Shown: in pieces, positions 19,359 to 62,207 of the stretch
Layout: each line of letters begins with the position of its first letter
Numbering within the stretch: the stretch's first letter is position 1
Assembly (NCBI GenBank): GCA_963798085.1
Contig: CAWCRS010000002.1
Span: 381,979 to 445,978, forward strand
DNA length: 64,000 nt
Reading direction: 5' to 3'
From: an uncultured Gemmatimonadales bacterium
GTDB lineage: Bacteria > Gemmatimonadota > Gemmatimonadetes > Longimicrobiales > RSA9
Program-made: the position numbers and the translations under genes
The notes under the pieces: model-generated
Told to the model about the DNA's origin: nothing
The model's database searches: none
The model's input: only the letters and a program-made list of their open reading frames with translations

Positions 19359-19503
19359 AGATAACGTATGAGGGTTGCCGACGTGCCGGAGCCGACCGCA
19401 GGGCGGCGCAGGCATGTCCGCCGCCCTTCCCTCGCATAACCGCATCAGCTGCCCGCGGCGGCGGCCGTGCGCCAGCACGGCCTGCGGCAAACCGATGTTA
19501 TCT
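19359..19503 (-). repeat. attC-like site 11
   Basis: agataac...gttatct; ttgccg/cggcaa variant. Confidence 0.85.
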
Positions 19504-19616
19504 GAAGTACCGCGTGCCGTGACGCACCGACTCGCCACCTCAATGTGGACGGCCGAGCGTACGAGTGATCGCTCCACCGGAGCACGCTCTTGTCCGCGAT
19601 GACCGTCCGATGGCTG

Positions 19617-20093
19617 CTACCGGTCATCGTGTTGGTGGGCGGAAGTCGAGTCATCGGGTTCAATCTCACCTGGTCGGTCCGGTTGGCTTGTTGACCGAGT
19701 GCGTGCGGGTATCAGAAGCTGCACGAACGCGGCACCGGTGACCGCACCAGTTAGCGCAGCCACCGGCACCAGTGCTCGCGCCCCCGGTCCATACCACTTC
19801 GGCCATGTGAGCACCTCGACGATCAGGATGCCCACGACGGCAAACACAGAAACAAACCAGATCGGCCGCAAATGCCGGGTTCGTCGCAGCACCAGGTATA
19901 GGGGAAGGCCCACGATCCACGTGCCCGCGTAGATCGGCACGCCGAACACGGGTGCGAAGATGTACAGAAAAATGACCGGCGCTTGCAGCCCACCGCGTGG
20001 CGGGGCGAAGACAAGGTACAACGGCAGGCACGCGAGGAGGCCCACAAGTAACGCGAGCATGAAGGCGCGGATTGGACGACGCTCGTTCTGCAT
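19617..20093 (-). CDS. Hypothetical 4-TM membrane protein
   Basis: Strongly hydrophobic ORF filling the cassette. Confidence 0.65.
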   Translation of the reverse strand: MQNERRPIRAFMLALLVGLLACLPLYLVFAPPRGGLQAPVIFLYIFAPVFGVPIYAGTWIVGLPLYLVLRRTRHLRPIWFVSVFAVVGILIVEVLTWPKWYGPGARALVPVAALTGAVTGAAFVQLLIPARTRSTSQPDRPGEIEPDDSTSAHQHDDR

Positions 20094-20335
20094 GCCCGGA
20101 GAACTCGGGTTGATGGGTGGACCGATTGGGCTCCGACGGCATCGATGCACCGCCGTGCTTGCAAGGACTCCTGAGACGAGCGTGTCCGCGAATCGATACA
20201 AGCAATCGCGCTCCGCCGATCAAGAGTCCCATCACTCTGCTCGTTTGACCTGGGTACGGCAACGGGCTTCCATGTCGCCCACCACAAAACGGGCCACTGC
20301 CGCCCCAATTTCGCCACTGCGTGACGCGGTATTTC

Positions 20336-20479
20336 AGATAACGTCTCGGTTGTTCACGACGTGCCGGAGCCGACCGTCAGGGCGGCGCAGGCATGTCCGC
20401 GCCCTTCAACGCTGGCCGCCTCAACAGTCGCGCGGGCCGGCGGCCGCCAGGCCGCCGTGCGTGAAAAGACGTGTTAGAT
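20336..20479 (-). repeat. attC-like site 12
   Basis: agataac...gttagat. Confidence 0.9.
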
Positions 20480-20659
20480 GATGCCGGTCCCCGCTGCCTG
20501 CCATGCCCGCCCGTACCGGGTCAAGCCCAAACGCCCGTGGCTTTGGAGGCGTCTCGTTGACATCGGGCCGACCCCATCCTATGCGTTCTCGGACCAAGAT
20601 GCGACAGCGATGTGGCGCCGGCGTCGCATGGGGACACTGCTATTGAGAAGCGCATCGGA

Positions 20660-21472
20660 ATGACCATGGACGGACACGCACGAAACGAGGGTGTGGCCGC
20701 AGCGATTTCAGACCTCTATTCGGGGCCTCTCGACAGCTTCGTGGCTCGGCGTGACGCGTTTGTGAAGGAACTGCGCGCCGCGGGTGGGCGCGAAAATGCC
20801 TTGGCGGTCAAAGGCCTGCGCAAACCTTCGCGGCTGGCCTGGGCTCTCAATGCCGCGTCGCTCGCCGACCCGGCGCGCATGGATCAGCTCGAGGCGGCAG
20901 TCGCATCGACAATCCAGGCGCAGGCCGGTGGTGGCGACCTGCGTTCCGCGCTGAGTGCGTTGCGCGAAGCCGTCCGGGGTGTGGCGGACGCGGCCGCTGG
21001 TATCGCTGCCACGGGGGGCCACCCCATGGCACCCGAGCCTCTCGCGAACGCGATCATGGCCGTGATCGGTGCATCCGATGCATTTCGCTTGTTGCGAACC
21101 GGCCATCTCGTGGACATCCCTGAGGCCGGCGGATTCGACTTCTTCGCGTTTGCGGCACCGAGCCCAACACCCTCGAGTCCCGCCGATATTCAACCCGCAC
21201 GCGACCCGTCTGCAGCGGATGACGCCTATCGGGAGGCCGTGCGCCGAGCTGAGGCCACTTTCGCCGCTGCGCGCGAGGGATTCGCACTGGCTGAGCAAAC
21301 CCTGCGCGATGCCGAAGCAAGGCTTCAAGAGGCTGAACACAGGTTGGCAATGGCTCGCCCGGACGCGGTCGCGGCAAAGGCTACCTACGATCGGGCCCAA
21401 GCGGTCATGAAAGCGGCCGAAACCGAGCTGCGACAGGCGGAATTGTCGCGGGATCTCGCGCACCGAACCTAG
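20660..21472 (+). CDS. Hypothetical coiled-coil protein (inverted; duplicated at 42328)
   Basis: LY..PLD.FVA.R...LRKPS..AWALN N-terminus and coiled-coil C-terminus. Confidence 0.75.
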   Translation: MTMDGHARNEGVAAAISDLYSGPLDSFVARRDAFVKELRAAGGRENALAVKGLRKPSRLAWALNAASLADPARMDQLEAAVASTIQAQAGGGDLRSALSALREAVRGVADAAAGIAATGGHPMAPEPLANAIMAVIGASDAFRLLRTGHLVDIPEAGGFDFFAFAAPSPTPSSPADIQPARDPSAADDAYREAVRRAEATFAAAREGFALAEQTLRDAEARLQEAEHRLAMARPDAVAAKATYDRAQAVMKAAETELRQAELSRDLAHRT

Positions 21473-21528
21473 CAATTGCCTCAGCCTCGCAAAGGACTCG
21501 CTCTCAATCCGTTGCGGGGACCGGTTTC

Positions 21529-21666
21529 AGCTAACGTGATGGCGGTTCATGACGCGCCGCAGCCGCTTGCGGCGCAGGCGTGTCCGCGCCCATCCCAAGC
21601 TACACGCCTCGGCCGTTGCGCGGCCGGCGGCCGCCAGGCCGACGTGCGTGAAATGACGTGTTAGAT
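21529..21666 (-). repeat. attC-like site 13
   Basis: agctaac...gttagat. Confidence 0.9.
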
Positions 21667-21882
21667 GATGGCCAGCGCACGTGCCGGGAACTGCGATTCG
21701 GTCCAGGCTCGCTCGACGTTGAGTTCGGTTCGTCACCCCGAAGCGGAGCCTGCCATCTTGGGTTTCAGGCACAGAATGTGTGGCCAAAGCCAAGGTACGA
21801 GCGGCCCCTGGAGCGCGGGACCGTCAACGCCCCACGCCGCCAGCAACCCATTCGTGAGCCGGCAACGGACCTTCTCCTTTGG

Positions 21883-22608
21883 CTAGCACTTCCGCATGAC
21901 CCAAGTCGTCATGGCTCGCGCATTCTGAATGACTGTCGTCTTCAGCGGATCGACGAGCGTTCCTCCAAGTCCCGCGCTCAGCCTCATCAGGTAACTCTCG
22001 TCCACCAGGAAACGATCACTCCCATCCGGTAGGTGATACCACCGGCCCCTTTGAGGAGTGACCAATGCTTCGATGCCGATCGTCGACGCGAGCCGTGCGA
22101 AGAAGATGCCTCCTGGCCCGAGGACGCGCCACATCTCTGCCACCATGCGCTCGCAGTCAGCCTCGTCTTCCGCGAAATGGAGGACGGCGCTGCAGATCAC
22201 CGCCTCAAAATGGTCGTTCGGAAACGCCAGGTCCGACAGTCTGGCCACTACGAAGTTGTCGGCGGGGAGCCCAGGAGCGGCGATGGCGGCAACCTCCCGA
22301 ATCCGCTCGATCTGCATGGGGTCACAGTCGACTCCATGCACGTTGGCACCACACCGCATGAGGTATTCAGAATTTCGGCCTCCACCGCACCCGGCGTCGA
22401 GAATGCGCATCTGAGGTGTGATGTTACCACGGAGAATCTGGTCGAAGACGTAGATATCGATCCGACCGAACTGCGCAAGCAGTTCTTCAAATGCATGCGA
22501 TGGGTCCGTTGACGTCAACCAGCCTCCCTTTTTGCCACGCTCTCCAGCACATCGTGAACCCCACGGAGGTCCTCGCGTAATGTGCATCTGCGACTTCGAA
22601 CAGGTCAA
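21883..22608 (-). CDS. Class I SAM-dependent methyltransferase (true start probably ~22520)
   Basis: ILDAGCGGGRN and SAVLHFA motifs. Confidence 0.85.
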   Translation of the reverse strand: MTCSKSQMHITRGPPWGSRCAGERGKKGGWLTSTDPSHAFEELLAQFGRIDIYVFDQILRGNITPQMRILDAGCGGGRNSEYLMRCGANVHGVDCDPMQIERIREVAAIAAPGLPADNFVVARLSDLAFPNDHFEAVICSAVLHFAEDEADCERMVAEMWRVLGPGGIFFARLASTIGIEALVTPQRGRWYHLPDGSDRFLVDESYLMRLSAGLGGTLVDPLKTTVIQNARAMTTWVMRKC

Positions 22609-22702
22609 GGTTCGGGAGAGTCCGCCTCACCAGGGTTCATGGCTTCAAAGACGCGGCCAACAGGTTGTGCCCAGGTGCCAGTCGATGAGTGCGCTGGCTT
22701 TC

Positions 22703-22846
22703 AGCTAACGTTCCGTCTGTTCACGAAGCCCCGGAGCCGAGCGAAGCACGGCGAAGGGGTTTCCGCGCCTTTCCCAATCTGACCCTTTCATGACCTGCGC
22801 GGCAAGCGGCGCGAAGCGCCGCGCTGCGTGAAATAGACTGTTAGAC
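22703..22846 (-). repeat. attC-like site 14
   Basis: agctaac...gttagac. Confidence 0.85.
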
Positions 22847-22901
22847 GTAGTGACCTGCGCCTGGTTGCCCGACCTACGTGCCTCGGGATTACCTTCGCTT
22901 G

Positions 22902-24113
22902 TCAACTCATGGTCTTCTTCAAGCCGAACAGCGCGACTCGATCCAGTCCCACCTCATCTCGGAGAAAGCCAAGGACGTAATCCGGACCAATGTCCTTCAC
23001 TTGCAGTCCATCTGGCAGGGTGACGGTGGTGAGCCACCGACCAGCCTGATCGAACACGGTCCACTCCGATTCCGGCTCGGTATACACACGATAGGTCTCA
23101 ACCCAGAGATTACCCTCGCGATCGACAAGCATCGCCGAATAGGCGGGAACAAAGGCCGGGTAATCTGCCTCGTCAACGTACTTGAGAACCTGCTCGAGCT
23201 GCGCCGGCGGAAGCTGACCCGCTTCAGCTTCGACAGTCTTCGCGTACCCTTCTCGGAAGCGGGCCCTTCGCTCTGGTGTCACAGGGCTTGGGTCATGCGA
23301 CTTGCGGATCAACCGGCGCATGCTACCGTCCAATGCGTATTCGCCGATTTCGAAGGACTGGCTCGTTCCCATGTAGAACCGGTCTCTTGCCAAGGCGAAC
23401 TGCATGCGATGGCCAAAATGATACGGCCGCGGCTGGCCGCCGCCGAGGCCTCGTTGCTCGCTCAACGCGTAACGACCAATCGTGTCCACGGCCAGGCCTG
23501 GACCGCGGTACAGGACGAACCATGTGGAATCCCAGTAGATGCCGCTGATGTCCCTTGGGCGACCACCCTCTCCCGGTGACGCCAGAAACACGAGGCTGTC
23601 GCCAAGCACCCCTTGGGCCCAGTAATTACGGCCAAAAACAACGAGCATCGATCGGCCAAATCTACCATCCGCATCGAGAATCGATACGCGCGTGAGGCTA
23701 TAGTCGTAGACCATAAGCGAATCGCCTCGGAACGGTCGAATCGTCCACATCGTGTTGAATTCCCCGGGACCTTCCCCTTGACGTCCGGTCGCTGCAATCA
23801 ACCGACCTGTTGAAGAAAAGAACTTGACCTGATTCGCGCCTTCGTCCGATACCACAATGCGGCCGTCAGCCAGGCGAATCGCGTCGCGGGGTCTGATGAT
23901 ATCCTCGGTCTCTTTGCTGCCAATCACGACACTCGGCTGACTCGCGACCATCCATGCCGATTCTTCCAACTTTGGGCGCCGATTCTCGACGATGGTAATC
24001 CCAGCGCTATCCCGAACACCAAGACCGGCAGCAGGCTCGTGACGGCTATCGCACGCCGACATGATCAGGATTGTAGCGGAAAGGACTGCGTAAGTTCGAG
24101 TGTGCGCCGCCAT
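22902..24113 (-). CDS. 6-bladed beta-propeller lipoprotein
   Basis: MSAC lipobox; RDSAGITIVEN, GRQGEGPGEF and VDREGNLWV motifs. Confidence 0.85.
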   Translation of the reverse strand: MAAHTRTYAVLSATILIMSACDSRHEPAAGLGVRDSAGITIVENRRPKLEESAWMVASQPSVVIGSKETEDIIRPRDAIRLADGRIVVSDEGANQVKFFSSTGRLIAATGRQGEGPGEFNTMWTIRPFRGDSLMVYDYSLTRVSILDADGRFGRSMLVVFGRNYWAQGVLGDSLVFLASPGEGGRPRDISGIYWDSTWFVLYRGPGLAVDTIGRYALSEQRGLGGGQPRPYHFGHRMQFALARDRFYMGTSQSFEIGEYALDGSMRRLIRKSHDPSPVTPERRARFREGYAKTVEAEAGQLPPAQLEQVLKYVDEADYPAFVPAYSAMLVDREGNLWVETYRVYTEPESEWTVFDQAGRWLTTVTLPDGLQVKDIGPDYVLGFLRDEVGLDRVALFGLKKTMS

Positions 24114-24142
24114 TTCAACCTCACGATAGCGCAGGTCATTTC

Positions 24143-24287
24143 GGCTAACGTGATCTGCTGTTCACGACGTGCCGGAGCCGACCGTCAAGGCGGCGTAGGC
24201 ATGTCCGCGCCCTTCCTAAGCTGCCCGCCTCGGCCACTGCGCGGCCGGCGGCCGCCAGGCCGCCGAGCGTGAAATGGCGTGTTAGGC
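24143..24287 (-). repeat. attC-like site 15
   Basis: ggctaac...gttaggc. Confidence 0.9.
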
Positions 24288-25184
24288 GCTGCGTGATCCA
24301 CTGCCAGGCTTAGCAAACGTGCGGGCTTCAGTTCTACTTACCGAAGCAACCGCCTTGCGGCGTTCGCCAGGGGAGATGGCTGGGTTCTCAGGACTCAGCC
24401 GCTCGTGATCTTCGATTGTCCAGATTGCGGAGAGGACGGCTTGCGCAAATGCCCATTCCGCGACGCGCTCCCTGTCAAGGTCCAGGGCTTCGGCGAATCG
24501 TGCGGTTCGGCGTCGCACCACGGCCGGATTCATGTAGAGGTCCGGCTGACCTTCCGGGTTCCTCAGCATAGCGCCGAGCTCGTACTCGATCTCGCCAATG
24601 ACACCTTTGGGATCAATGGCGGTCCAGCCACGCCGCTCGTCCCACACAATATTGTGGTGCTGGAGATCCCCATGCACCAGCCGCCGGCTCCGTTGCGTTT
24701 CCGCGAGCCTCTCATAGCGGGTCTGGGCTTCTTCGACAAGGTCTCGACCCAGCTGGCCGTCGCCTAGCGCGAGGTACCGACCGAAGCTCTCTCCCCACTC
24801 TTCAACCGTAGGGACCGATTCCAACTGGGGCGCCACGCTGCACATCTCGCTGATCACGCCGGCCGCGATTCCGATGGCCTCGTCGTCGCGACCCGTGAAA
24901 ACCAGTTCTGCCAGCGGCGTCGCCGGCTGGAGCCGCTCCATCAGCACGGCACCCGGAGCGTACTCGAGTGTCCGCACGACCCCGCGGCCTTCGAAGGCAG
25001 TTCCAATGCGACCGGCTTGCCACTCATCCCCCATCGATCGCACTACTTTGAGTACAACATCTTCTCCCTGGCGCGTGCCATACCCGATCAAGGACGTGTA
25101 TGAAGCTGCCACCTCGTGAACGATGATCTGCCATTCATGGGCGAGTGCATGCAGGCGCTCGGTCGCACTACCTGTCTCGGCCAC
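24282..25184 (-). CDS. APH(6)/streptomycin-6-kinase-like aminoglycoside phosphotransferase
   Basis: VVLK, LMERL, HGDLQHHNI and AIDPKG motifs; TAA stop inside GCCTAAC. Confidence 0.8.
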   Translation of the reverse strand: MAETGSATERLHALAHEWQIIVHEVAASYTSLIGYGTRQGEDVVLKVVRSMGDEWQAGRIGTAFEGRGVVRTLEYAPGAVLMERLQPATPLAELVFTGRDDEAIGIAAGVISEMCSVAPQLESVPTVEEWGESFGRYLALGDGQLGRDLVEEAQTRYERLAETQRSRRLVHGDLQHHNIVWDERRGWTAIDPKGVIGEIEYELGAMLRNPEGQPDLYMNPAVVRRRTARFAEALDLDRERVAEWAFAQAVLSAIWTIEDHERLSPENPAISPGERRKAVASVSRTEARTFAKPGSGSRSA

Positions 25185-25214
25185 AACGGCCTTTCGCGAT
25201 GTGGATCACGTTGC

Positions 25215-25354
25215 GCCTAACGTCTCAGAGGTTCATGACGCGCCGCAGCCGCTTGCGGCGCAGGCGTGTCCGCGCCCTTACCAAGCTACACGCCTCGGCC
25301 GCTGCGCGGCCAGCCGCGCGAAGGCGCGGCGCCGCATGAACTAGCGTGTTATGT
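25215..25354 (-). repeat. attC-like site 16
   Basis: gcctaac...gttatgt. Confidence 0.9.
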
Positions 25355-25421
25355 GCTGTCTGATCCCTGCGTGGGATGTGCAATGTGTGTCTAGCTGTGC
25401 GCCACTAGCTGCGGTCGTTCT

Positions 25422-26432
25422 TCAACGACCGTGATGCTTGGCAATGTCAGCCTCGGTCAGCCGCAGGAATCTCGCTGCATTGTTGTACAGAATGTCCCGC
25501 TTTTGCTCCTGCGAGAGAAACGACGCATTCTCGATTCGCGTGATTCCTCGCTCGATCGTTTCAGGCCATACCATTTGATCCGACCCAAACATAACGCGAT
25601 CGCCAAACCCAGCGTCGACGATCGTGCGAAGGTAGCGATAGAACTCGGCTTCGGGCAGCGCATACACGATGATGCCCACGTCCACGTACACTTGGGGATG
25701 TGTCCACAGCACCGCCAGTAGGTCGTCCAGCATCGGCCAGCCCGCGTGCATGATGTAAATGCGAAGCCGCGGGTGACGTACCAGTGCTTCCTCAAGGAGC
25801 AGCGGACTGTGCAGGCGAGCTCGGTAGCCCTCAAAGCCGAGGTAGGGAGCTCCCGGAGGTCCTGTACCGATATGGATGCCCACGGGTATGTCCAACGCCT
25901 CGGCAACGGTCAAATAGGGGTCGAAGATCGAATCGCTTGGGCCAATGCCCGCGTACTGGTTCGTCACCTCTCCCAGCACGGCCAAAGCGCCCGACGCATG
26001 AAGGCGGCGGATGGAGTCCGGCGTGATCTGAGTGTCGGCAATGTTGAACATCAGGCCTGGAATGATCCGGTCCGGGGCATCAGCCCTCCACCGTTGGACG
26101 AAAGCAACGGAGCCACTGGTCACCCCGATAATGTTACGTCGCTCGAGGATCTCCAGCGTGCGCCGCTCAAGTTCTTGATCGGTCTCCGGCGACCAGGCGG
26201 GATTCGAACACGCTGGATTCTTCAACGCGGCCATGAAAACAGCCGGCCAAGGCCGGGACGCATCGAAGTGCAAACCCACAATGGGAGTGCATATCGCCAA
26301 TGGTGGAGGCCCTTGGGAACTTGCCGCCACCGCGTGAAGGTGCATGTCAATTACCGGATCGGGCCGCCGTTGTCCAGCGACGGGAACAAAAAGGCCCAAT
26401 GCGAGAGAAGCGACGACGACGGTTGTCCTCAT
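25422..26432 (-). CDS. Secreted amidohydrolase_2 family protein
   Basis: IDMHLH, IMHAGWP, VMFGSD and ILYNNAARFL motifs. Confidence 0.88.
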   Translation of the reverse strand: MRTTVVVASLALGLFVPVAGQRRPDPVIDMHLHAVAASSQGPPPLAICTPIVGLHFDASRPWPAVFMAALKNPACSNPAWSPETDQELERRTLEILERRNIIGVTSGSVAFVQRWRADAPDRIIPGLMFNIADTQITPDSIRRLHASGALAVLGEVTNQYAGIGPSDSIFDPYLTVAEALDIPVGIHIGTGPPGAPYLGFEGYRARLHSPLLLEEALVRHPRLRIYIMHAGWPMLDDLLAVLWTHPQVYVDVGIIVYALPEAEFYRYLRTIVDAGFGDRVMFGSDQMVWPETIERGITRIENASFLSQEQKRDILYNNAARFLRLTEADIAKHHGR

Positions 26433-26596
26433 GATTCACGCTCCGGGAACAACCCTAGGATTGCAGTCCCGGCTCCCTGCTGACGTTGCCTCGAAGCAAC
26501 CTCCAAGCTTCAGCGCGGCCCATGCGATGTCAATGAGCACACGCACACTAAACATGCGCGTCAGTGGCTTTAGATCTTCCGAGGGGATCAGATTGC

Positions 26597-26740
26597 ACAT
26601 AACGTCTCGGTTGTTCACGACGTGCCGGAGCCGACCGGCAGGCGGCGCAGGCATGTCCGCGCGCTTCCAAGTGCCGCCCGCCTCGGCAGTTGCGCGGCCG
26701 GCGGCCGCCAGGCCGCCGAGCGTGAAAGGACGTGTTAGCG
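26597..26740 (-). repeat. attC-like site 17
   Basis: acataac...gttagcg. Confidence 0.9.
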
Positions 26741-26773
26741 GATGTCGAGCCGGCGCGATGCTGTTTGGCAACA

Positions 26774-28411
26774 CTATTCTGCGACCTCTTTCTGCTTCAA
26801 GAATGCTGCGGCTTCAGCCAGTTCTGGACGTCGTGATTGCTTCGCGGCCAGACGTAGCAGTTCGCGATAGTAGGTCCTCGCGAGGCTAGTGTCGCCAGCG
26901 CGTCCAGCCGATCTGGCGGCGCCAGCAAGACTGTTGAAACGCCCGGGTTCCGATTTCAGCGCTGCTTCATAGGCCTGGAGTGCGGCCGCTGGGCGGTCGA
27001 GCTCGAGCAGCAAATCACCCAGAAGCTCCGAGGCTGGCAGGATGGGCGCGGGCGTCACAGGAGGTTTGGGTGTACTGGCCTCAAGGCGCACGGCTTGCTG
27101 CATGAGCGCAAGCGCACTGTCTGTATTGGCTGCCGCCTCTGCAAGCCATGCCGCAACGCTCAGCCGCAGAATCTCGGTCTGGCGAGCGAAGAGGTCCTCT
27201 CCCATTCGCTGCGACGCATCCCTCAGAGCGCTGAGGTGCCTTTGCGCTTCTTGCGCCGCGGGTACGTTTCGGGTTCGGATTGCGCCAATGCCGCGGGCAA
27301 ACCACGTGACGGCTTCTGGCCATGGGAAAAGATCCCAGGTGAGGGTGGAATCAGGCCGCGGGGTGAGGCGGGACGCCTGCGTCCAGTCCCGTCGCTCGAG
27401 CGCGTATCGGGCCGGAATCGACGACAGGTGAAACGCAGTCTTGAAGCTCGGCTGGAGATTGGTCGTCTGCTGCAGCCGCGCCATCGCCATCGCGGCAGCC
27501 GAATCGTCTCCAACCTGAAGTAGGGCATAGACCAGGTACTCAATCGTATGCGGGAACTCGTCCCAGACCCACTGCTGGCGGTCGCCGGCCGGAGTCTCCA
27601 ACGCCGCATCCGCGGCCTGACGATTGCCGTCAATGACAGATGCCCAATCTCCCAGCCGAACGTAGATGTGGGTCGGCATGTGCAGCGCGTGCGGATTTCG
27701 GGGCGCGATTTCCACGTAACGACGCACGACGTCGAGGGATTCCGTCTCGCGGCCAACTGCATCATTTGCGTGGATCATGTAGTGAACCGCCCCGGGATGC
27801 ATTGGTTCAACGGCAAGAATCGCCTGCAGCACCGCTGCCGCTTCATTCTGGTGCGTCAGCCCTCCCGTTGAGGGAGCTGTAGCCAGAACGGAAAGGGCAA
27901 AGAACGCCTTGGTCTCCACCTCCTGCGGGTATGCCTCGTACAGCGCGCGCGTAGCCTCGGCCCACTTGGCAATGCGTTCCCAGTAGCCATTGACCGCTGG
28001 GTCGAAGAATGCTGCGGTCGTGGCAATAAACATCGTGTCCCGGCGCGTCCCCGCCCCACTCGCCTCGGCCCGCAACACCTCTTGCCAACCGTGCTCCAGA
28101 TCGTCCGCGCTCGGGCGGGTGGGCCAGAGCGGCTGAAAGTACGTCATCGCGATCCCCCAGTGGGCCATGGCGCACTCCGGATCCGCTGAGGCAATGGCGG
28201 AGAATTCGGCTCGGGCCCGCGAATACGTCATGTGGTGGAGTAACGCCACCGCATGGTTGAACTGCGCTTGTGTGTTCTCCCTGCAGGAGATCTCGAAATG
28301 TACGACTCCGAGGTGTTCCAATGCGGTATCGTGCTGGCCTGATGCTTCGACTGGGACGAGTGCAGTGACAGTGGCTACGACCAGCGCAACGATAACATGA
28401 TGCGTTGCCAT
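26774..28411 (-). CDS. Secreted TPR-repeat protein
   Basis: Signal peptide; HPGAVHY.IH and PHALHMPTHIY motifs; helical repeats. Confidence 0.8.
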   Translation of the reverse strand: MATHHVIVALVVATVTALVPVEASGQHDTALEHLGVVHFEISCRENTQAQFNHAVALLHHMTYSRARAEFSAIASADPECAMAHWGIAMTYFQPLWPTRPSADDLEHGWQEVLRAEASGAGTRRDTMFIATTAAFFDPAVNGYWERIAKWAEATRALYEAYPQEVETKAFFALSVLATAPSTGGLTHQNEAAAVLQAILAVEPMHPGAVHYMIHANDAVGRETESLDVVRRYVEIAPRNPHALHMPTHIYVRLGDWASVIDGNRQAADAALETPAGDRQQWVWDEFPHTIEYLVYALLQVGDDSAAAMAMARLQQTTNLQPSFKTAFHLSSIPARYALERRDWTQASRLTPRPDSTLTWDLFPWPEAVTWFARGIGAIRTRNVPAAQEAQRHLSALRDASQRMGEDLFARQTEILRLSVAAWLAEAAANTDSALALMQQAVRLEASTPKPPVTPAPILPASELLGDLLLELDRPAAALQAYEAALKSEPGRFNSLAGAARSAGRAGDTSLARTYYRELLRLAAKQSRRPELAEAAAFLKQKEVAE

Positions 28412-28635: not shown

Positions 28636-28661
28636 GTAGGCGGCCCCGCTGCTCGGTGATG

Positions 28662-51767: not shown

Positions 51768-51773
51768 CGCCGC

Positions 51774-53064: not shown

Positions 53065-53157
53065 CCGCCTCTCCTTGGATCCGCACCTTGACCTGGTTTT
53101 GGCACATTGCTGCCGACTCAGCGACCTACCTCATAGTCCTTTCCGGTTGTGGCTTTC

Positions 53158-53297
53158 AGATAACGTGATGGCGGTTCATGACGCGCCGGAGCCGCTTGCG
53201 GCGCAGGCGTGTCCGCGCCCCTCCCAAGCTACACGCCTCGGCCGTTGCGCGGCCAGCCGCGCGCACGCGCGGCGCAGCATGAACTAGCGTGTTATCT
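53158..53297 (-). repeat. attC-like site 38
   Basis: agataac...gttatct. Confidence 0.9.
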
Positions 53298-53327
53298 GCT
53301 GTTGCCCCGTGCACCGGTTCGCGATGT

Positions 53328-54119: not shown

Positions 54120-54152
54120 GCGACTTCTGACGTTGAGACAAGGGGCAATTGC

Positions 54153-54300
54153 AGATAACGTAATGAGGGTTCACGACGCGCCGGAGCCGCTTGCGGCGGA
54201 GGCGTGTCCGGCGAAGCGGAACCCAAGCCGCTCGCGGCGCAGGGTGAAGCGCCGCCGGCAAGGCCGCGTCAGCGGCCGTAGCGTGAAACCGATGTTATCT
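54153..54300 (-). repeat. attC-like site 39
   Basis: agataac...gttatct. Confidence 0.85.
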
Positions 54301-54377
54301 GCTGGTGGTCCGTGTCCAGGACAAGCTACACGTGGCACCAATCGCCGACAGAGCCGCTTAGCGTGGTGTGCACGCGG

Positions 54378-54608
54378 TCAGGATGCGATCTCGCGCGTAT
54401 GAAGGATCTCAGAGCCGGCAAAGGGCCGCAACGCGGACGCATCCAATGTCACCACAGCCACCGTGTTGCCATCGGCTCGAACGAACTCGACTTCCAGTGC
54501 CTCACCGCCACGGTAGACATGAACGACGGTTCCGACGTCTCCGGCTTCCAGACCATGCTCACGAACCGCATGCCTCAGCACCACCAGATCGAGCTCTTTC
54601 ATCATCAT
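54378..54608 (-). CDS. DUF4926 protein
   Basis: ELDLVVL...GLEAGDVGTVVHVY...EVEF motif. Confidence 0.85.
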   Translation of the reverse strand: MMMKELDLVVLRHAVREHGLEAGDVGTVVHVYRGGEALEVEFVRADGNTVAVVTLDASALRPFAGSEILHTREIAS

Positions 54609-54958
54609 CTCTCCGAACGGTCAGACGCCGGATAGGCCGTGACAAATCGCGGGCCGGCACTTGCGGTCTCGCGGATCCAGACCGTCCGCACCCACGCGGA
54701 ACCGGCCGGCCCGTTTACATACCCATCCACAACGAACTTCGAGCCGAAGCGGGAGTCTTCCTCCTGAATCAGCTCGCCGCGCAACGCAATCTCGAGGAGC
54801 GCCCGTCGGAGCAGCTGCGGTCTGCTCGCGACGAAGCCTAGCGCCCGAAAGAACCTCGCCTTCGCAGCACCGCCGGGATGGCCATCTGCGAGAAGATAGT
54901 CCACGATCTTCGAGTCAGAGACCTCTGCCAGATCGCCGTCGGGTAAACGTTTCGCCAC
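54605..54958 (-). CDS. DUF6883-like protein (putative toxin paired with DUF4926)
   Basis: KIVDYLL...H..G..KA.FF...PRFVTAYP motif. Confidence 0.75.
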   Translation of the reverse strand: MAKRLPDGDLAEVSDSKIVDYLLADGHPGGAAKARFFRALGFVASRPQLLRRALLEIALRGELIQEEDSRFGSKFVVDGYVNGPAGSAWVRTVWIRETASAGPRFVTAYPASDRSER

Positions 54959-55025
54959 GTTGCCGCCCTCACCTTCTTATCGAGGACCGGCAATCTACGC
55001 CTCGGCAGCGATAAGGACCACTTGC

Positions 55026-55170
55026 AGATAACGTCTCGGCGGTTAACGAACCCGCGGGAGCCGACCGCCAGGGCGGCGAAGCGGGTTCCCGGCCCTTCCC
55101 AAGCTATCCCTCTCACGGTCTGCCGGGCCAGCGGCCAAAGGCCGCGCGGCGTTAACCCAGCCTGTTAGAC
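55026..55170 (-). repeat. attC-like site 40
   Basis: agataac...gttagac; ttaacg/cgttaa variant. Confidence 0.85.
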
Positions 55171-55480
55171 GAAGTGCCCCCAGCGCGATTCCTTGAGAAG
55201 GCACACGATCCGACCTAAGACCCAAGCTGCTTCGCGGTTTCCGGAAACCAACGTTTGGCGAGGGGCTGAAGCCGAAAGAAACGCTCAACTCGCCGCCTTA
55301 GGAGCTTGTCGTCCTCTACTCCACCCCATTCGCGCCTTGCATGGTGTCGATGCGTGCGCCCGCGACTGAGGTGGCCCACCAGCTTGTCAGCTGCGGTGAA
55401 GCGAGATTTCTCGCGCACGGTCCATGAGAATGCGGTATGACCAGGGGGAAGAAAATCTGTGATGATTAGATCCTGGGGCC

Positions 55481-56633
55481 TAGTACTAACTTGCACAAGA
55501 TCGCGTTATCATGTAAATAAGGGTCCACAGTATTCACTCCTCGCGGAGCGAGCACCATGGGCCGGGCGACCGAGATCGTATTGACGGTGCAGCAGCGGCA
55601 GACGCTGGAAGCGTGGAGCCGCAGCAAGGTCATGGAGTTTCGCTATGTGGAGCGCGCTCGCATCATCCTCGATGCGGCGCGCGGGGACAGCACGAGCGCG
55701 ATTGCGCGACGGCATCAGGTGCGCCCCGCGACCGTGAGCAAGTGGCGGCTTCGTTTCGCGGCGCAGGGTGTGAAGGGCCTGGACGACGCGGCGCGGACGG
55801 GGGCGCCAGCCGCCTACGACGAGGACACCGAGCGGCGCATCCTGGCGCAACTGGATGAACCGGCGCCGCGCGGTTTTGCGCAGTGGAACGGGCGGTTGGT
55901 GGCGGAAACGCTGGGCGATGTGTCGCAGGCCCACGTCTGGCGGGTACTGCGCAAGCACCAGATCCAACTGCAACGGCGCCGGAGCTGGTGCATCAGCACG
56001 GACCCCGAGTTCGGTCCCAAGGCGGCCGATATCATTGCGCTGTACCTGAACCCACCCGAAAACGCGATCGTGCTGAGTATCGATGAAAAGCCGCACATCC
56101 AGGCTCTGGAGCGGGCTCAGGGCTACCTGCGGCTGCCGAATGGCCGCGCGATCAGCGGCTTCAGCCACGACTACCAGCGTCACGGAACCACCACGTTGTT
56201 CGCTGCCCTCGATGTGTTCACGGGTCAGATCAGGGCCGGGCACTACCAGCGCCGCCGCCGCCGGGAATTCCTCCACTTCATGAACGAGGTTGTCGCGGAC
56301 TATCCGGCCGACGTGGAGATCCATGTGATCCTGGACAACCTGAGTACGCACAAGCCCAGGCACGACCACTGGCTCGCACGGCACAAGAACGTCCACTTCC
56401 ACTACACTCCCACCCACGCCAGTTGGATGAACCAGGTGGAATTCTGGTTCAGCATCATGGCGCGCGCGGCACTTCGGGGCGCCAGCTTCACATCACCGGA
56501 GCAGGTCCGCGAAGCCATTGATGCATTCGTCGCCGTCTACAACCCCCGGGCCACGCCCTTCGAATGGCGCAAGGAAGTCGTACACCCGGTGCCGCTCAAG
56601 CACCGTTACGCTGACTTGTGCAAGTAAGTACTA
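55481..56633 (+). mobile_element. IS630-family element A, copy 2 (intact transposase 55557-56627)
   Basis: Near-identical to 14118-15269; CTAG at both ends. Confidence 0.95.
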
Positions 56634-57596
56634 GTGTAGTGTGGCCAAAGTCTCTTTGGCTTTGGCGACTTTGGAGAGGATGCTGTTCAGCGAAGCCGTC
56701 CAGACGAATGGCTTTGGGTCGAGGTTGCGCGTATCCAGATAAGCGGAGATCGCCGCAATCAACTGGTCGACGTTATGGACAACCAGCCGGCGGAGCTGGC
56801 GTACGGTGAGTTCACTGAAAAGGCGTTCCACAAGGTTCGCCCAGGACGACGACGTGGGCACGAAATAGAATTGGACCCGTGGGTTGCGCTCCAGCCAGGC
56901 GAGGACTTCGGGCGTCTTGTGGCTGGACGCGTTGTCGAGGATGAAATAGACGTCGAGTGGCTTGGGGACCGTGCGCACCACCTTTCGTGCGAAGCGCAGA
57001 AACTCGCTGGCGCGGTGGCGGGGCATGCATTCATGCACCACGCTGCCGGTCTTGATCTCGAGTGCGGCAAAGAGCGTGGTCGTCCCGTGACGCTTGTAGT
57101 CGTGGGTCATTGTGCCGGCCCGTCCCTTCTTGAGCGGCAAGCCGGGCTGCGTACGATCCAGCGCCTGGATCTGACTCTTCTCATCAACCGCAAAGACCAC
57201 AGCATGCTCCGGCGGATGGAGATACAGCCCCACGACCGCCCGCAGCTTCTTTACGAAGTCCGGATCCCTGGAAAGCGTGAAGGTGCGGATGCGATGGGGC
57301 TTGATCCCGTGACCGCGCCAGACGCGCGCCACCGTGGTGGGGTGCCACCCGAGTTCCCTGGCCATGATCCGCGTACTCCAGTGCGTGCCATTCGGCGGGC
57401 GCGTCTCCAGCGTCTTCTTGACCATGGCCTCTTCGTGCGCTGCCGTGATCCGCTTCGGTCGGCCCGTGCGCGGTCGATCGCTTGTAGGAGACGCCCCCAG
57501 ATTGGAGGTCTGGAGACACCCAGATTTACGCACTGACCATTGACGGTGCCGGTGTGACCGGCACACTCCGCGTCGACCTCTCGACGCGGAGACTTC

Positions 57597-58910
57597 ATGA
57601 GCAAGCTCACGAAGGAGCAGATCATGGTCGGAGCGGGAATGGTGGCCCGAGGGACATCGATCCGGCGGGTGGCCGGGCAGCTGGGCGTCGCAGAGGGCAC
57701 GCTGCGCTATCAGATGCGGAAGGCGAGGGACTCGCGGCCGGATGGACGGGCTCGGCAGCGGACCGCGCTCGATGGATTCGAGCCTGTGGTCAATGCCATC
57801 CTCGAGCGGCTGGAGGATGGTCGCAAAGAGGGGACGGGTCGGCCGGTGCAGGCCCGTGTGGTATTCGAGATTCTGCAGCGGGACTACCGCTATCACGGCA
57901 GTTACCAGGCGGTGGTGCGGCACCTGCGGCGCCGCTTCGGCGTGCCGCCCGTGCGGGCGTTGCGGCGGGTCGAGACACCCGCGGGCGTGCAGGCGCAGCA
58001 CGACTGGTTCGATGCTCAGGTCCGCTTCCGCGGCAATGAGCGCGTCACGCTGCGTCTGCTGGTGGGCACCCTCTCGTACAGCCGGGCGCGCTTCTGCTGG
58101 GCCAGCTTCGAAGCGAATCAGCTGGCCTGGCACACGGGACACCTGGCGCTGTTTCGCGCGTACGGCGGTGTTCCGCTCTGGGTGCGCATTGACAATCTGA
58201 AGACGGGTGTCGTGCGCGGCGCGGGTTCGACGGGCGTCCTGAATCGTGCGTATGCCGTGTTCGCGCGGGAGTGCCGCTTCGAGATTGATCCGTGCCGGGT
58301 GCGCACGCCTTCGGACAAGGGCAAGGACGAGCGTAGTGTACGCATCTGCCGTGATGCCTTCGGTGCGCTGTTCCACGAGAGCTGGTCGAGCATCGAGAGC
58401 CTGCAGGAGAGCCTGCACGAGCGCTCGCATGAGCTGATGGACCGGTTGCAGTGCCCGATCACAGGGACCTCGGTGCGCGAGGCCTTCGAGAGCGAGCGTC
58501 TCGTGCTGCAGCCGCTGCCGGCCATGAGCGACCCGTTCGACGTCGTCGTTGCCCGCCGTGTACAGCGGGATTGCCTGGTCTCCTTCGAGGGGCGGCGCTA
58601 CAGCGTGCCGTTCACCTGGGTCGGACGCAACGTGGAGATCCTGGGCACGCATGCGCATGTGGTGATTCGCGCGGACGGCCGGGAGATCGCGCGTCACGTG
58701 CGGCACACGCGGGAGCGGCTGATCCTCGAGCCGGCGCACTACGAAGGGGAATCCACGGATCACGTGATTCGGCCCACCCCGCTGGGGCTGCGTGGCCGTC
58801 TGCAGGTGGCGGGCCTTTCCGGTGCATCGCAGCGTACGCTGCTGCTCCTGCCGCAGCGCGTCAGTCGCCCGCTCGACACCTACGTCAGAATGGTGGAGGC
58901 GGCCCGATGA
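57597..58910 (+). CDS. istA: IS21 transposase IstA
   Basis: ETPAG.QAQHDW, IDNLKTGV and KGKDER motifs. Confidence 0.92.
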   Translation: MSKLTKEQIMVGAGMVARGTSIRRVAGQLGVAEGTLRYQMRKARDSRPDGRARQRTALDGFEPVVNAILERLEDGRKEGTGRPVQARVVFEILQRDYRYHGSYQAVVRHLRRRFGVPPVRALRRVETPAGVQAQHDWFDAQVRFRGNERVTLRLLVGTLSYSRARFCWASFEANQLAWHTGHLALFRAYGGVPLWVRIDNLKTGVVRGAGSTGVLNRAYAVFARECRFEIDPCRVRTPSDKGKDERSVRICRDAFGALFHESWSSIESLQESLHERSHELMDRLQCPITGTSVREAFESERLVLQPLPAMSDPFDVVVARRVQRDCLVSFEGRRYSVPFTWVGRNVEILGTHAHVVIRADGREIARHVRHTRERLILEPAHYEGESTDHVIRPTPLGLRGRLQVAGLSGASQRTLLLLPQRVSRPLDTYVRMVEAAR

Positions 58911-59752
58911 CGCGTGCACCGAAAGTCGATCTCGATCAGCTGGTGCAGAAGTGCACGACCCTGGGTCTGGCGCATGCAGCCGATCTGCTGCCCGAGCTGG
59001 TGGAGGAAGGCACGCGTGACGCTCTCCCGCCGCTCCGCTTTCTCGAGCTCGTGCTCGAGCGCGAGATCGAATGGAAGACGGAGCGGCGCGTCGCCACGTC
59101 TCTCAAGCTCTCCGGGCTCCCGACGGGCCGCACGCTCGAGGGATTTGACTGGACCTTTCAGCCGCGCGTCGACCGCGGCAAGCTCGAAGCGCTTGCTACC
59201 TGCGCCTTCATCCGCCAGAAGGATAACGTCCTGTTTCTCGGGCCGCCCGGTGTCGGCAAGAGCCACTTGGCTGTGGCCCTGGGCGTGAAAGCAGTGAAGA
59301 ACGGCTTCAGCACCACGCACTTCGTGCTCGACGACCTCATGCACCAGCTGCGCGGCGACGCCGCCATCCCGCCCACGCGTCTCAAGGCCAAGCGTTACCT
59401 GAACAGTGCGTTACTCATCATCGACGAAGTCGGCTTCCGCCCGCTCGACCGGCACGAAGCCAATCTCTTCTTCCGTCTCGTCAGCGCCCGCTACGAGAAG
59501 GGCTCGATCGTCCTCACTTCCAACAAGCACGTCCGGGACTGGCCCGAGATCTTCGCCGGCGACGAAATCCTCACCACGGCGATCCTCGACCGCCTCCTTC
59601 ACCACGTGCACATCGTCCACATCGACGGCCGCAGCTACCGCCTGCGCGAGCTCGACGGCCTCCTCCAACCTCACGCCACATCGGCTGCTGACGCAGCCAG
59701 GGACCTGAAAGGAGGTATCACAACAGCGGAACGGATTTCAACCGGTGCGTAA
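58907..59752 (+). CDS. istB: IS21 helper ATPase IstB
   Basis: GPPGVGKSH, LIIDEVG and AILDRLLHH motifs. Confidence 0.93.
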   Translation: MTRAPKVDLDQLVQKCTTLGLAHAADLLPELVEEGTRDALPPLRFLELVLEREIEWKTERRVATSLKLSGLPTGRTLEGFDWTFQPRVDRGKLEALATCAFIRQKDNVLFLGPPGVGKSHLAVALGVKAVKNGFSTTHFVLDDLMHQLRGDAAIPPTRLKAKRYLNSALLIIDEVGFRPLDRHEANLFFRLVSARYEKGSIVLTSNKHVRDWPEIFAGDEILTTAILDRLLHHVHIVHIDGRSYRLRELDGLLQPHATSAADAARDLKGGITTAERISTGA

Positions 59753-60274
59753 AACTGGATGTCTCCAGACGCGTAAAACTGGGTGTCTCTTGACAATCGC
59801 TCAGCAACGCCCGGCAGGCCGCCCTCTTCATACCGGTCGAGCCACAAGGTCACGGTCGGCCGCGATACGTGCACCGCCGCGCAGATCGCCTGACCCGACA
59901 GGCCCTGTGCCGAAGCCAGCACAATACGGGCGCGTTCGGCGATGCGCTGGAGGGTCGTGCGCTTGCGCATCAATTCCTCGAGACGTTTCTGATCGCCTCG
60001 GCGTAACCGGATTACTCGCGTGGGCAATGGCATGCAGCAGGATACAATATCCACGCACATTATGCAAGATACTTCTGCCACACTACACTAGGTGAGCGTC
60101 CAGGCCTACCCGCATGGAAAAACTCCATCAAAGCGCGAAAGTGGGCTGCGTATGCAACGTGCATTGCCCGTATCACGTGGTCCGGATGCGAATGGGCCGG
60201 AGCTGCCAGTTCATTCGCGAGCTTGAGTACCTGGGACATTTCGTGGTCGACATGCATGCGTTGTGCCCGAGTGC

Positions 60275-60775
60275 TCATGGCGCGACCGGGCTACGGTCGA
60301 ACACTGGCCGAGGCGAACCCCGTGCGGCGCCCAACCCACTTACGGCAGCATCGGCTGGCTTCGGGCAGTCGATCTTGATTGCTGCTTGGAGTTCAACTTT
60401 CACGGACGAGAAGTACGTTGTCAGACCCGCCAGAAACGTCCTCTCGCTCTCATCCTTCAAAAGCAGCGCTGCTTCAGACGAGGACGATGTAGACGTACCG
60501 CCGCCGACGAAGCAGGTTGTCTCGGTACTCGTGAACTCGAGCCAGTCGACCTTCTTGCCGGGGATCCAACGGCGGTAATTGAGAATCGGATCATCCTCCC
60601 AACGATCTGGCGTGCGAAACGAACGGTGGGACATGACGCCAACATCAACGACGGTCTTGTCCACGAGAGCATGGTGTTCGCTCATCATGCCCCACTGGGC
60701 CTCAAGCGGCTTCGCGCCAAGTGTGGAAGCCGCAAGGATAGTCGCCGCCCATAGCGTTCCTGAGATCCAAGACAT
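60275..60775 (-). CDS. Secreted hypothetical protein
   Basis: GAGGAGG RBS and signal peptide; stop overlaps the next start. Confidence 0.6.
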   Translation of the reverse strand: MSWISGTLWAATILAASTLGAKPLEAQWGMMSEHHALVDKTVVDVGVMSHRSFRTPDRWEDDPILNYRRWIPGKKVDWLEFTSTETTCFVGGGTSTSSSSEAALLLKDESERTFLAGLTTYFSSVKVELQAAIKIDCPKPADAAVSGLGAARGSPRPVFDRSPVAP

Positions 60776-60869
60776 CGGTCCTCCTCTCGTATCGCAATGC
60801 GCTGCGCAAGACGCTCTTTGAATCCGATGGCCTGTCGGCATGGCAGCTGCGCTTGGTTGGGGGCATTTC

Positions 60870-61013
60870 GTCTAACGTCTCTGCTGTTCACGACGTGCCG
60901 GAGCCGACCGCAAGGGCGGCGCAGGCATGTCCGCGCCCTTCACGGGCGACTCGCGTCGGCCACTGCGCGGCCGGCGGCCGACAGGCCGCCGTGCGTGAAA
61001 TACCGTGTTAGGT
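60870..61013 (-). repeat. attC-like site 41
   Basis: gtctaac...gttaggt. Confidence 0.9.
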
Positions 61014-61064
61014 GACGTTGGACCCACCCTTCTGAAGCGCGCCCTCTGGGCTGCGTTGCGAGAC

Positions 61065-61943
61065 CTACGGGTCCGGGAATTCACGACGCCATTCATCAAC
61101 CAGGGCGCTCGTGGCCGCGTGCAAGTTCTCGCAATAGGTCTTAAGGTGCTTCCACTTCGCCTGCGGAACCGCTGAGAGGTTATGCGCAAGCGCAAGCGAC
61201 GAGCGCATGGCAGTCCGAGCGTTTTCGTATCGAAACGCGGAGAAGCGCCATTCCGTCGCTCTGCCAAGAACCGCGTTGTGGACGAGTAGCCGCGAATCTG
61301 CAGGCGGGTGCACCGCCCAATCGCGAAAGCGGAAAATCTCTCGGATTCCCTCTCGGAGTCCACGGTAATCCTGGCGGTTCGCCAAGGTGAATGCCAGGCG
61401 AAATACTTCGCTCGTTTGCTTCCATCTTGCCGTCTGGTTCTTGGCCCAAGCGGCTTGGTGCAGCGCAGGCACATCGATGCGTTCCTTGACATGTGAATAC
61501 AGGGCGTCAATGGAGATGGCGGCAGCTGTTACTGCCTGCATTGATGCGTGGAATTCAGCCTCGAGGAGAGGATATGCTTCTTTCGCCTGCCCTGTGGCTG
61601 CCACCTCGAGCGCCAGCCGAGCACGTCTTGCCGCCGCGACATGCCCGGTGCCGATTCTTAGCCAGTGCCGGACCAAGTCCATTCTCAGAGCGAAGCCATC
61701 ATGCTCGACCCTGAAGGCGCCGTCTGCTGGCACGATGATTCGAAACCCTTGAATGGACAGATCTGCTCCGTCTGGAACTATGATGCCAGCGGCGTTGGCT
61801 CTCGCGCTGGGAGCCGGCTTGGCGGCCTGCGGCGGTTCGTCGGAAATGCTCATTGGCATCGATCTCTTGGGTGCTTCGACTTTCGAGGCTAATGGACTAC
61901 GTACTGCTCGCGGCGATGGATGGATATGGCCCAACGTTCGCAT
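61065..61943 (-). CDS. Hypothetical helical protein with HEPN-like RxxxxH motif
   Basis: IFRFRDWAVHP. Confidence 0.6.
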   Translation of the reverse strand: MRTLGHIHPSPRAVRSPLASKVEAPKRSMPMSISDEPPQAAKPAPSARANAAGIIVPDGADLSIQGFRIIVPADGAFRVEHDGFALRMDLVRHWLRIGTGHVAAARRARLALEVAATGQAKEAYPLLEAEFHASMQAVTAAAISIDALYSHVKERIDVPALHQAAWAKNQTARWKQTSEVFRLAFTLANRQDYRGLREGIREIFRFRDWAVHPPADSRLLVHNAVLGRATEWRFSAFRYENARTAMRSSLALAHNLSAVPQAKWKHLKTYCENLHAATSALVDEWRREFPDP

Positions 61944-62063
61944 ACAGTTCCCGGGGAACGATTCCCACTTGCCTTGAGGCGGCTACCTCCCCCGGCCGAT
62001 CATCTGTGCTGACGAAGCCTCCTTCGTTGTTACTTGGCATGCACGCGCTGTGGGTCCAATGTC

Positions 62064-62207
62064 ACCTAACGTCTCGGTTGTTCACGACGTGCCGGAGCCG
62101 ACCGTCAGGGCGGCGCAGGCATGTCCGCGCCCTTCAACTGCTGACCGCCTCGGCAGTTGCGCGGCCGGCGGCCGACAGGCCGACGTGCGTGAAATGACGT
62201 GTTAGAT
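62064..62207 (-). repeat. attC-like site 42
   Basis: acctaac...gttagat. Confidence 0.9.

Follow-up and report, generated by a model that had tools for sequence, protein, structure and literature searches.

The stretch studied here is a window of 64,000 nt, the final 64 kb of contig C2 in the genome of an uncultured Gemmatimonadales bacterium from soil (G000; 6.2 Mb, 12 contigs), and it belongs to an integron-type array that has about 60 sites, if not more. In this window, each of the 31 cassettes lying from position 19497 to position 62070 is bracketed by two arms that are complementary to each other over 17–22 nt. This pattern, pointed out in a first-pass annotation made from the sequence letters, is confirmed here and is non-canonical, and the arms most likely mark a new variant of the integron system. 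We consider it rather probable that, in this variant, a cassette-specific outer helix would clamp the recombinase-binding arm of the site in folded single-stranded DNA (ssDNA), a function that we infer.

Matched Arms at the Two Ends of Each Cassette

For each of the 31 cassettes, the 32 nt following the GTT of one site were compared with the 32 nt that end at the next AAC, read as their reverse complement; site coordinates refer to the A of AAC and the G of GTT, and the range studied runs from 19363/19497 to 62068/62201. Over positions 1–7, cognate ends match at 6.74/7 and non-cognate ends at 5.43/7 (n = 930 non-cognate pairs); over positions 12–22, the values are 9.19/11 for cognate ends against 3.51/11 for non-cognate ones (sd 1.70, n = 930), and over positions 23–32 they are 2.48/10 and 2.58/10, the signal ending at position 22. 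The summed identity at positions 12–22 is 285/341, and permuting the partners gave a mean of 114 and a maximum of 162, with 0/10000 permutations as high as the true pairing. A perfect run of at least 6 nt from position 12 is present in 29/31 cassettes, the other two being that at 39038, with one mismatch, and that at 51394, with a 1-nt shift. A blind scan for GTT...AAC pairs lying 150–4000 nt apart with at least 15/19 matches returned 27 pairs in the window and 0 in 5/5 shuffles. The first-pass annotation had claimed a complementarity of about 20 nt in all 31 intervals between its sites 11 and 42 (GTT positions 19497...62201 of our hidden Markov model (HMM) map), with arms that differ from one cassette to another, and had proposed the comparison with shuffled pairs; all of this holds, as does the match that it reported across a stack of insertion sequences (IS), where the pair 55164/60876 is intact over 5.7 kb (7/7 at positions 1–7, 12/17 at positions 8–24). 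It also mentioned arms in several older intervals: sites 1–10, the older part of the array, are decayed, and arms persist there in two intervals (8801–9606 and 12590–13540).

The arms can be divided into three parts, namely about 10 bp of GTTRNNNGNN (the R box plus 3 bp), which corresponds in length to a single binding arm of a tyrosine recombinase; a G.T wobble that never varies and occurs on the + strand only; and a helix private to each cassette. The GTTA at the start of the arm is invariant in the 31 cassettes and position 8 is G, while positions 5–7 vary and covary with the cognate partner in 29, 25 and 31 of 31 cassettes, respectively. Position 10 is T.T in 16/31 cassettes and paired in 15/31; at position 11, a G in the left arm lies opposite a T on the + strand in 31/31, which makes a C opposite an A on the − strand, a feature absent from the first-pass annotation. 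The helix that follows position 11 is 6–12 bp long, and each of positions 12–18 shows three or four Watson–Crick pair types, with 28–31 of the 31 cassettes paired. Such covariation, seen all along the helix, points to selection for pairing. On the coding strand, the order is 5′ arm, short leader, open reading frame (ORF), 3′ arm and an inner attC of about 127 nt. The arms are mostly non-coding: the ORF stops 30–80 nt from the boundary in most cassettes, and three of the listed ORFs end in the TAA of the R box. Between the outer helix and the inner site, similarity does not exceed chance level.

Outside the helix, the flank of the right arm is often CCGTTG (AACGG on the coding strand) and that of the left arm often TG (21509–21535, 31069–31095, 39919–39945); in G288, a related genome discussed below, the equivalent flanking words are CGACCCA and GCGCTC.

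Sites of the Array

An HMM was trained on 26 clear copies of the site and run on the window with nhmmer. With it, 41 attC-like sites (AAC...GTT, about 133 bp each) were located at 1336..62203 on the − strand, all 41 in a single orientation, and the array continues to the contig end. As in canonical attC sites, the boundaries are RYYYAAC at the start and GTTRRRY at the end, around a conserved centre; the sites have an inner pairing TTCACG/CGTGAA, and about 133 nt separate AAC from GTT in the 41 sites. The fold predicted for each of them with DNA parameters is a basal stem, made of AAC/GTT and then TTCACG/CGTGAA, plus three hairpins, to be compared with the single hairpin with extrahelical bases of a usual attC; extrahelical bases are not assignable from this prediction. 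A generic attC finder recovered 5/41 of the window sites by banded alignment of the inner arms and 0/41 by symmetric hairpin folds. Since the sites are branched, the family HMM and a direct scan for end pairs were used in place of generic finders. Under IntegronFinder's rule (at least two attC sites and no IntI within reach), the array would probably be classed as CALIN, a cluster of attC sites lacking an integron integrase. In 21/31 cassettes, the minus strand carries the longest ORF; we thus take this strand as the coding (top) strand and the + strand as the bottom strand. No Xer/dif-type site (double-stranded core of about 28 bp, with two 11-bp arms around a centre of 6–8 bp) was seen by eye at the junctions, where no formal search was made.

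Two observations concern the site centres. Site 21533 joins a left half of the TTCATG type to a right half of the CGTGAA type, and the sites flanking two copies of one cassette are common only up to their centres (21533–21660 vs. 43202–43331; 20340–20473 vs. 42007–42141). Taken together, they suggest homologous exchange inside the conserved centres.

Mobile Unit, Crossover Point and Predicted Folds

The same cassette is found between different neighbours at 60874–62070 of the window and at C12:1752–2948, on another contig of the genome, and the two copies become identical within the CTAAC of the left site and cease to be so at the AACGT of the right one. From these limits, the mobile unit comprises the left site and the cassette body, with strand exchange in the invariant AA|C of the + strand, equivalent to G|TT on the coding strand. 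The crossover at G|TT is that of canonical integrons, as is the fact that the first cassette bases complement the cassette's own inverse core (the covarying positions 5–7). The copy pair 20473/42141 was also considered for crossover mapping and proved unusable, as its boundaries fall in the site centres.

As the arms have the crossover at their inner edge, one of them moves to the far end of the linear cassette, and the excised circle must carry an attC with an outer stem that is absent from array-resident sites, in agreement with what the first-pass annotation had deduced. The predicted stability of attC in the circle form exceeds that in the array by 12.0 kcal/mol on average (30/31 cassettes), and the predicted folds pair the 10-bp R arm in 28/31 circle forms vs. 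11/31 array forms. The + strand is predicted to be more stable than the − strand in 29/31 cassettes, and the arm duplex to be more stable on the + strand in 31/31. When site, cassette and next site were folded together as ssDNA, the arms were predicted to pair across the cassette in 15/21 cases on the + strand and in 11/21 on the − strand.

Canonical Integrons as Controls

The same end-pair scan was applied to 80 canonical IntI loci from many phyla (939 kb, including Vibrio, Marinomonas, Luteimonas, a cyanobacterium and a metagenome-assembled genome of Treponema), where it gave seven scattered matches and no chains, and to 16 further IntI loci of the same phylum as our genome, covered over 20 kb each on the array side, where nothing rose over noise. 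In homogeneous canonical arrays (Calditrichia, Thermoanaerobaculia and Planctomycetota, compared by eye), cognate ends match over 7–13 bp. A hairpin finder gave 18 intervals in the canonical loci at a threshold of 0.7; it was then relaxed, and neighbours with 4/4 at positions 4–7 were kept. The 17 canonical end pairs so obtained match at 2.94/4 over positions 8–11 and at 2.59/11 over positions 12–22, which is chance level. The first-pass annotation had proposed this control, and the absence of long arms at these 80 + 16 loci speaks for its claim; its statement that canonical complementarity is limited to 7 bp has to be corrected to 7–13 bp. Since canonical pairing up to about 10–13 bp is ordinary, the novelty resides in the helix beyond position 11.

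Recombinase Beside the Arrays

Sites of the same family are also present on contigs C12 and C3 and at the end of C1, with cassettes that have the same arms. On C12, the array ends at an attI-like junction, and 430 bp separate this junction from the 3′ end of a co-oriented gene for a tyrosine recombinase (C12:7963–8790). At this locus (L009, C12:7540–8800), the attI-like end reads ...CAGCTAAC|GTTGAATGGG..., and the cassette nearest to it is ORF-less, about 230 nt long and equipped with matched arms. The first-pass annotation had placed the recombinase beyond the right edge and recommended looking for unusual insertions in it; in the assembly, the enzyme does not lie there on the same contig but on C12, and what sets it apart is a missing insertion, in line with the non-canonical integron-like system that the annotation had envisaged.

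Indeed, the C12 recombinase matches the integron-integrase model TIGR02249 at positions 2–179 and 235–313 only, with 219.8 bits (cut-off 265), and the XerA model with a lower score of 200.9 bits (cut-off 220). Its best solved relative is VchIntIA, whose residues 179–240 align with just 20 residues. The spacing between the motifs KGxxxR and [FL]RHSFATH is 67 aa, against 108 aa in IntI; it is 66–70 aa in 116/116 database relatives and 67–74 aa in 21 genome orthologues, and 108 aa in 54/55 IntI. The absent stretch is the IntI-specific insertion of about 41 aa. This insertion reportedly holds a helix that captures the extrahelical bases of folded attC sites. A canonical integron has, adjoining its array, an integrase with this insertion near patch III, encoded by an intI gene divergent from the cassettes, with attI and Pc in between; on C12, the adjoining enzyme lacks the insertion and its gene lies on the same strand as the cassette ORFs. 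This co-oriented arrangement, with the array at the 3′ end of the gene, is found in G000 and in eight other genomes.

In a quick maximum-likelihood tree with the long-branched Xer proteins of G000 as outgroup, 30 diverse IntI form one clade (aLRT 100) and 16 insertion-less proteins form its sister group (aLRT 80). The genome also has a canonical IntI (C1:447332–448435, loci L001 and L010; 410 bits for a cut-off of 265), whose closest relatives in public records are from Longimicrobiales/Gemmatimonadota; no cassette array lies beside this gene. A NusG/RfaH-like gene, recognized by reading the sequence, stands upstream of it.

Recurrence in Other Genomes

The site family was found on three metagenome contigs, where 4/4 complete cassettes are armed, with G/A at position 11; of 119 loci from a metagenome scan with 17-mers, only 3 were real family members. 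A BLAST search of one site against 400 genomes of the phylum gave just short GC-rich fragments. Orthologues of the insertion-less recombinase (49–59% identity) are present in 20/401 sampled genomes of the phylum, many of them at contig ends, and we examined the 20 kb past the recombinase 3′ end in 9 of these 20 genomes. Repeat arrays with end pairs of the same build are present at 8/9 loci, beginning 100–450 nt from the recombinase 3′ end in most of them. With the loci oriented by the gene, 48/51 GTTA-type pairs have a G in the left arm and an A in the right arm at position 11, so that the polarity of this position follows the orientation of the recombinase gene and is conserved across nine genomes. 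Locus L267 (G270:C1:738000–757999) carries, beside the orthologous recombinase, at least ten repeats of a 200-nt ORF-less mini-cassette with matched arms.

Canonical IntI exceeds the cut-off in 165/401 genomes of the phylum, a tally that includes the unpublished genomes G097, G182 and G157, which no other claim uses. Among the 20 genomes with the insertion-less enzyme, 12 have no canonical IntI at E ≤ 1e-60, and five of these IntI-free genomes (G288, G380, G249, G270 and G167) have verified armed arrays at the 3′ end of the enzyme gene. On the basis of this position and co-occurrence, we infer that the insertion-less sister of IntI runs the arrays; the link of the window to the C12 recombinase is indirect in the same way, as C2 is not joined to C12 in the assembly.

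Outside the phylum, an orthologue was found in 1/381 genomes of Chloroflexota, where two GTTA pairs have the right pattern, at a level not above shuffles, so that this is a lead only. The recombinase of this locus (L292, G649:C4:32800–52799, 46% GC) is 55% identical; the end pairs 12102/15457 and 15532/16958 show TG/AA or G/A at positions 10–11, with a site of about 78 nt between them.

Interpretation and Alternative Explanations

We propose that the arms have been selected to pair in folded bottom-strand DNA, whose folding the G.T wobble would favour. When both ends of a cassette are present in one single strand, the arms would zip, and the R-arm duplex would be held closed; this could take place in the excised circle, in the array with the cassette looped out, or in both. 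The cassette's own ends would then give a correctly paired cleavage site, in comparison with the hybrid R box formed between neighbouring cassettes, which would be mostly mispaired. The outer clamp may stand in for the stabilization otherwise provided by the missing IntI-specific insertion. More tentatively, and with a likelihood that we place clearly under one half, these arrays could belong to a sister integron lineage whose integrase never gained the insertion or lost it early, and which relies on an R-arm duplex locked by a private helix and marked by the G.T wobble. As a speculation, the ORF-less cassettes made of arms and spacer (44471–44699 and its relatives) may be a scaffold route to new cassettes.

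Several points weigh against the proposal of a clamping helix served by the insertion-less enzyme. The predicted strand asymmetry is small (1.6 kcal/mol for the arms), and minimum-free-energy folds ignore kinetics and single-strand-binding proteins. Many of the 51 GTTA-type pairs come from repeats of a single 200-nt mini-cassette, related genomes do not count as independent, and no array is present at the orthologue locus L275. The tree was built by a quick search, has long outgroup branches and gives the insertion-less group an aLRT of only 80; the canonical IntI of C1, at 410 bits, could act in trans, and contig C2 is not assembled onto C12. No recombination was observed, a weak joint 44695–49721 in soil metagenome data being the only hint. 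In that soil contig, the site edges 44695 and 49721 are joined and four cassettes are skipped, with 22 bases on the shorter side; this is too weak to count, and either a different order of the array or an artefact of repeats could explain the joint. The cassette common to the window and C12 is the other piece of indirect evidence for integrase-dependent excision and integration.

The arms could alternatively be a loop-out device, pairing in ssDNA across a cassette of about 1 kb so as to bring the flanking sites together and excise exactly one cassette, the cognate R box then being assembled together with the L′ of a site and the L″ of the following one. We regard this as possible and rather doubtful. 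The whole-cassette folds pair the arms in 15/21 cases on the + strand, single-site AAC/GTT closure being rare, and the R arm of array-resident sites is paired in just 11/31 predicted folds; the L-box words TTCACG/CGTGAA are moreover common to the sites, which makes hybrid L boxes possible. The basis of this explanation is, however, solely thermodynamic prediction, and the 1-kb loop would have to remain single-stranded; the 5.7-kb cassette with the IS stack keeps its arms, although loop-out is unlikely there. It is in any case compatible with a stem formed in the circle, the two not being exclusive and both being allowed by the predicted folds. The 31/31 cassettes, together with their relatives, have the wobble-compatible G.T on the non-coding strand, which makes it very improbable that the arms act in RNA as a stem of the cassette transcript, for stability, termination or insulation: the arms do flank the ORF in untranslated regions, but the coding strand has A.C at position 11 and often A.A at position 10.

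Another explanation would be that the whole is an ordinary integron run by the IntI of C1, with the arms as a functionless quirk of one attC family and the insertion-less recombinase as a bystander; a canonical IntI is indeed present in the genome, and canonical ends also pair past 7 bp, to 7–13 bp. We find this unlikely, given that no array lies beside the C1 IntI, that 12/20 genomes with the insertion-less enzyme are without canonical IntI, five of these having armed arrays, that 0/96 canonical loci have such arms, and that covariation at every helix position argues for selected pairing. We also give a low probability to the arms being a footprint of cassette making with no present function, left, for example, when a gene was inserted into an ORF-less stem scaffold. 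Mini-cassettes without an ORF do exist (229 nt at 44471–44699, about 230 nt on C12, 200 nt in G270), but a neutral trace should decay, and the arms of 31/31 young cassettes are near-perfect and decay only along with the sites; the wobble never varies, and nine genomes share its polarity. A scaffold origin and a present function are, moreover, not exclusive.

Comparison with Known Systems

The arrays resemble canonical integrons, among them the sedentary chromosomal ones whose attC sites are long and homogeneous, in their mostly single-ORF cassettes set in one orientation, in the RYYYAAC...GTTRRRY boundaries and the G|TT crossover, in the bottom-strand asymmetry and in an attI-like end adjoining a tyrosine recombinase. 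They differ from them in that the cassette ends pair over 17–22 bp instead of 7–13 bp, in that the predicted fold of the site is a stem with three hairpins, and in that the recombinase, without the insertion of about 41 aa and under the TIGR02249 cut-off, is co-oriented with an array located at its 3′ end. This co-oriented arrangement is also that of the "reverse" integrons of Treponema/Spirochaetota and of archaea, in which attI is downstream of intI. Treponema "reverse"-integron integrases are reported to carry the IntI-specific domain. The same is stated for archaeal integron integrases in the passages compared from PMC9668308, and the passages compared from the literature on "reverse" and archaeal integrons describe no long cassette-specific arms.

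With Xer/XerA, the C12 enzyme has in common a short, "simple" tyrosine recombinase architecture without the IntI insertion. Xer enzymes act in chromosome dimer resolution and on the pdif modules of plasmids. Unlike them, the enzyme studied here scores higher with the integron-integrase model, has VchIntIA as best solved relative, is a sister of IntI in the tree, and adjoins cassette arrays, not a single dif site. Units bracketed by inverted repeats of about 20 bp recall transposons with terminal inverted repeats (TIRs) and miniature inverted-repeat transposable elements (MITEs); in such elements all copies have the same terminal repeat, whereas here the outer half of the repeat differs from cassette to cassette and matches only its own partner, conserved attC-like sites adjoin the units, and there is neither a transposase nor a target duplication.

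Regarding the literature, Cury et al. 2016 (IntegronFinder, PMC4889954) reported that only 50 of the recombinases encoded near attC sites lacked the IntI domain and judged such enzymes not to be IntI; four phylogenetically intermediate enzymes co-localised with fewer than three sites. Smyshlyaev et al. 2021 described the insertion as "not fully conserved" in an integron-like subgroup, Ghaly et al. 2022 described archaeal integrons with attI downstream of intI and with the insertion present, and Ghaly and Gillings 2021 listed Gemmatimonadota among the integron-bearing phyla. In the full-text literature (subscription journals and supplements excluded), our searches brought up no description of such arms, nor any of arrays linked to integrases without the insertion.

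These results touch two tenets of integron biology, namely that the IntI insertion is essential and that attC pairing is needed only within the site: a family of insertion-less recombinases is found at the ends of large arrays in several genera, often without a canonical IntI in the genome. If the enzyme is active, the range of integron-like systems would be wider than thought, since arrays of this kind are probably recorded at present as orphan clusters of attC sites, and nature would offer an experiment on the recognition of folded DNA without the I2 helix. A new cassette would, in such a system, need matched sequences at both ends, which would give a handle on cassette origin. Should the tentative sister-lineage proposal be true, it would describe an alternative or ancestral way of recombining folded ssDNA, with a built-in pairing of cognate ends, and the ORF-less, stem-only cassettes would be candidate scaffolds for new cassettes.

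Cassettes of the Window and Minor Observations

The left arm and the reverse complement of the right arm were compared for each cassette over positions 1–7 and then 8–24; all 31 cassettes are listed on the − strand, and all have matched arms. Identities of 7/7 and 13/17 were obtained for the cassettes at 19497..20342, 24281..25221 (with an APH(6)-like ORF), 25348..26603, 37622..38906, 39038..39945 (one internal mismatch), 40079..41097, 41219..42009, 52378..53164 and 61007..62070, the last of which recurs, together with its left site 60874–61009, at C12:1752–2948. Values of 7/7 and 12/17 apply to 34900..36346, 44830..46067, 47227..48466, 49851..51254, 54294..55032 and 55164..60876, the latter being split by nested elements of the IS630 and IS21 families (with an IstB-like helper). 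The cassettes at 26734..28499, 31226..33701, 36478..37494 and 53291..54159 reach 7/7 and 11/17, that at 28629..29915 7/7 and 10/17, and that at 43331..44346 7/7 and 14/17. With 6/7 at the first positions, we find 13/17 for 20473..21535 and its second copy 42141..43204, as well as for 46197..47096 and 48597..49724; 12/17 for 21660..22709 and 22840..24149; 14/17 for 30041..31095; and 10/17 for 33832..34778. The 229-nt ORF-less cassette at 44471..44699, made of arms and a short spacer (longest ORF 47 aa), scores 7/7 and 9/17, and the cassette at 51394..52247 scores 7/7 and, ungapped, 4/17, its arms matching after a 1-nt shift, with CTGAGTGCC common to both and out of register.

Units of about 13 nt (GTTGCTGGGGCTG-like, often with GGGAAC at the end) make up a locally tandem repeat that is dispersed through the genome, with inverted clusters in dozens of places and on no fewer than 10 contigs (C1–C10, C12; for example C7:800844–801396, C10:87010–88520 and C3:176864–177227); it is unrelated to the array, and it swamped an end-pair scan of the whole G000 genome, which was set aside. 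As for cassette contents, the ORF at 24282–25184 (−) resembles APH(6)-type aminoglycoside phosphotransferases with 125.5 bits, far under the 325-bit cut-off, and the ORFs at 28662–29870 (−), 62689–63996 (+) and 26774–28411 (−) have weak matches (E ~1e-6) to NHL-repeat/PEP-CTERM-associated and TPR families.

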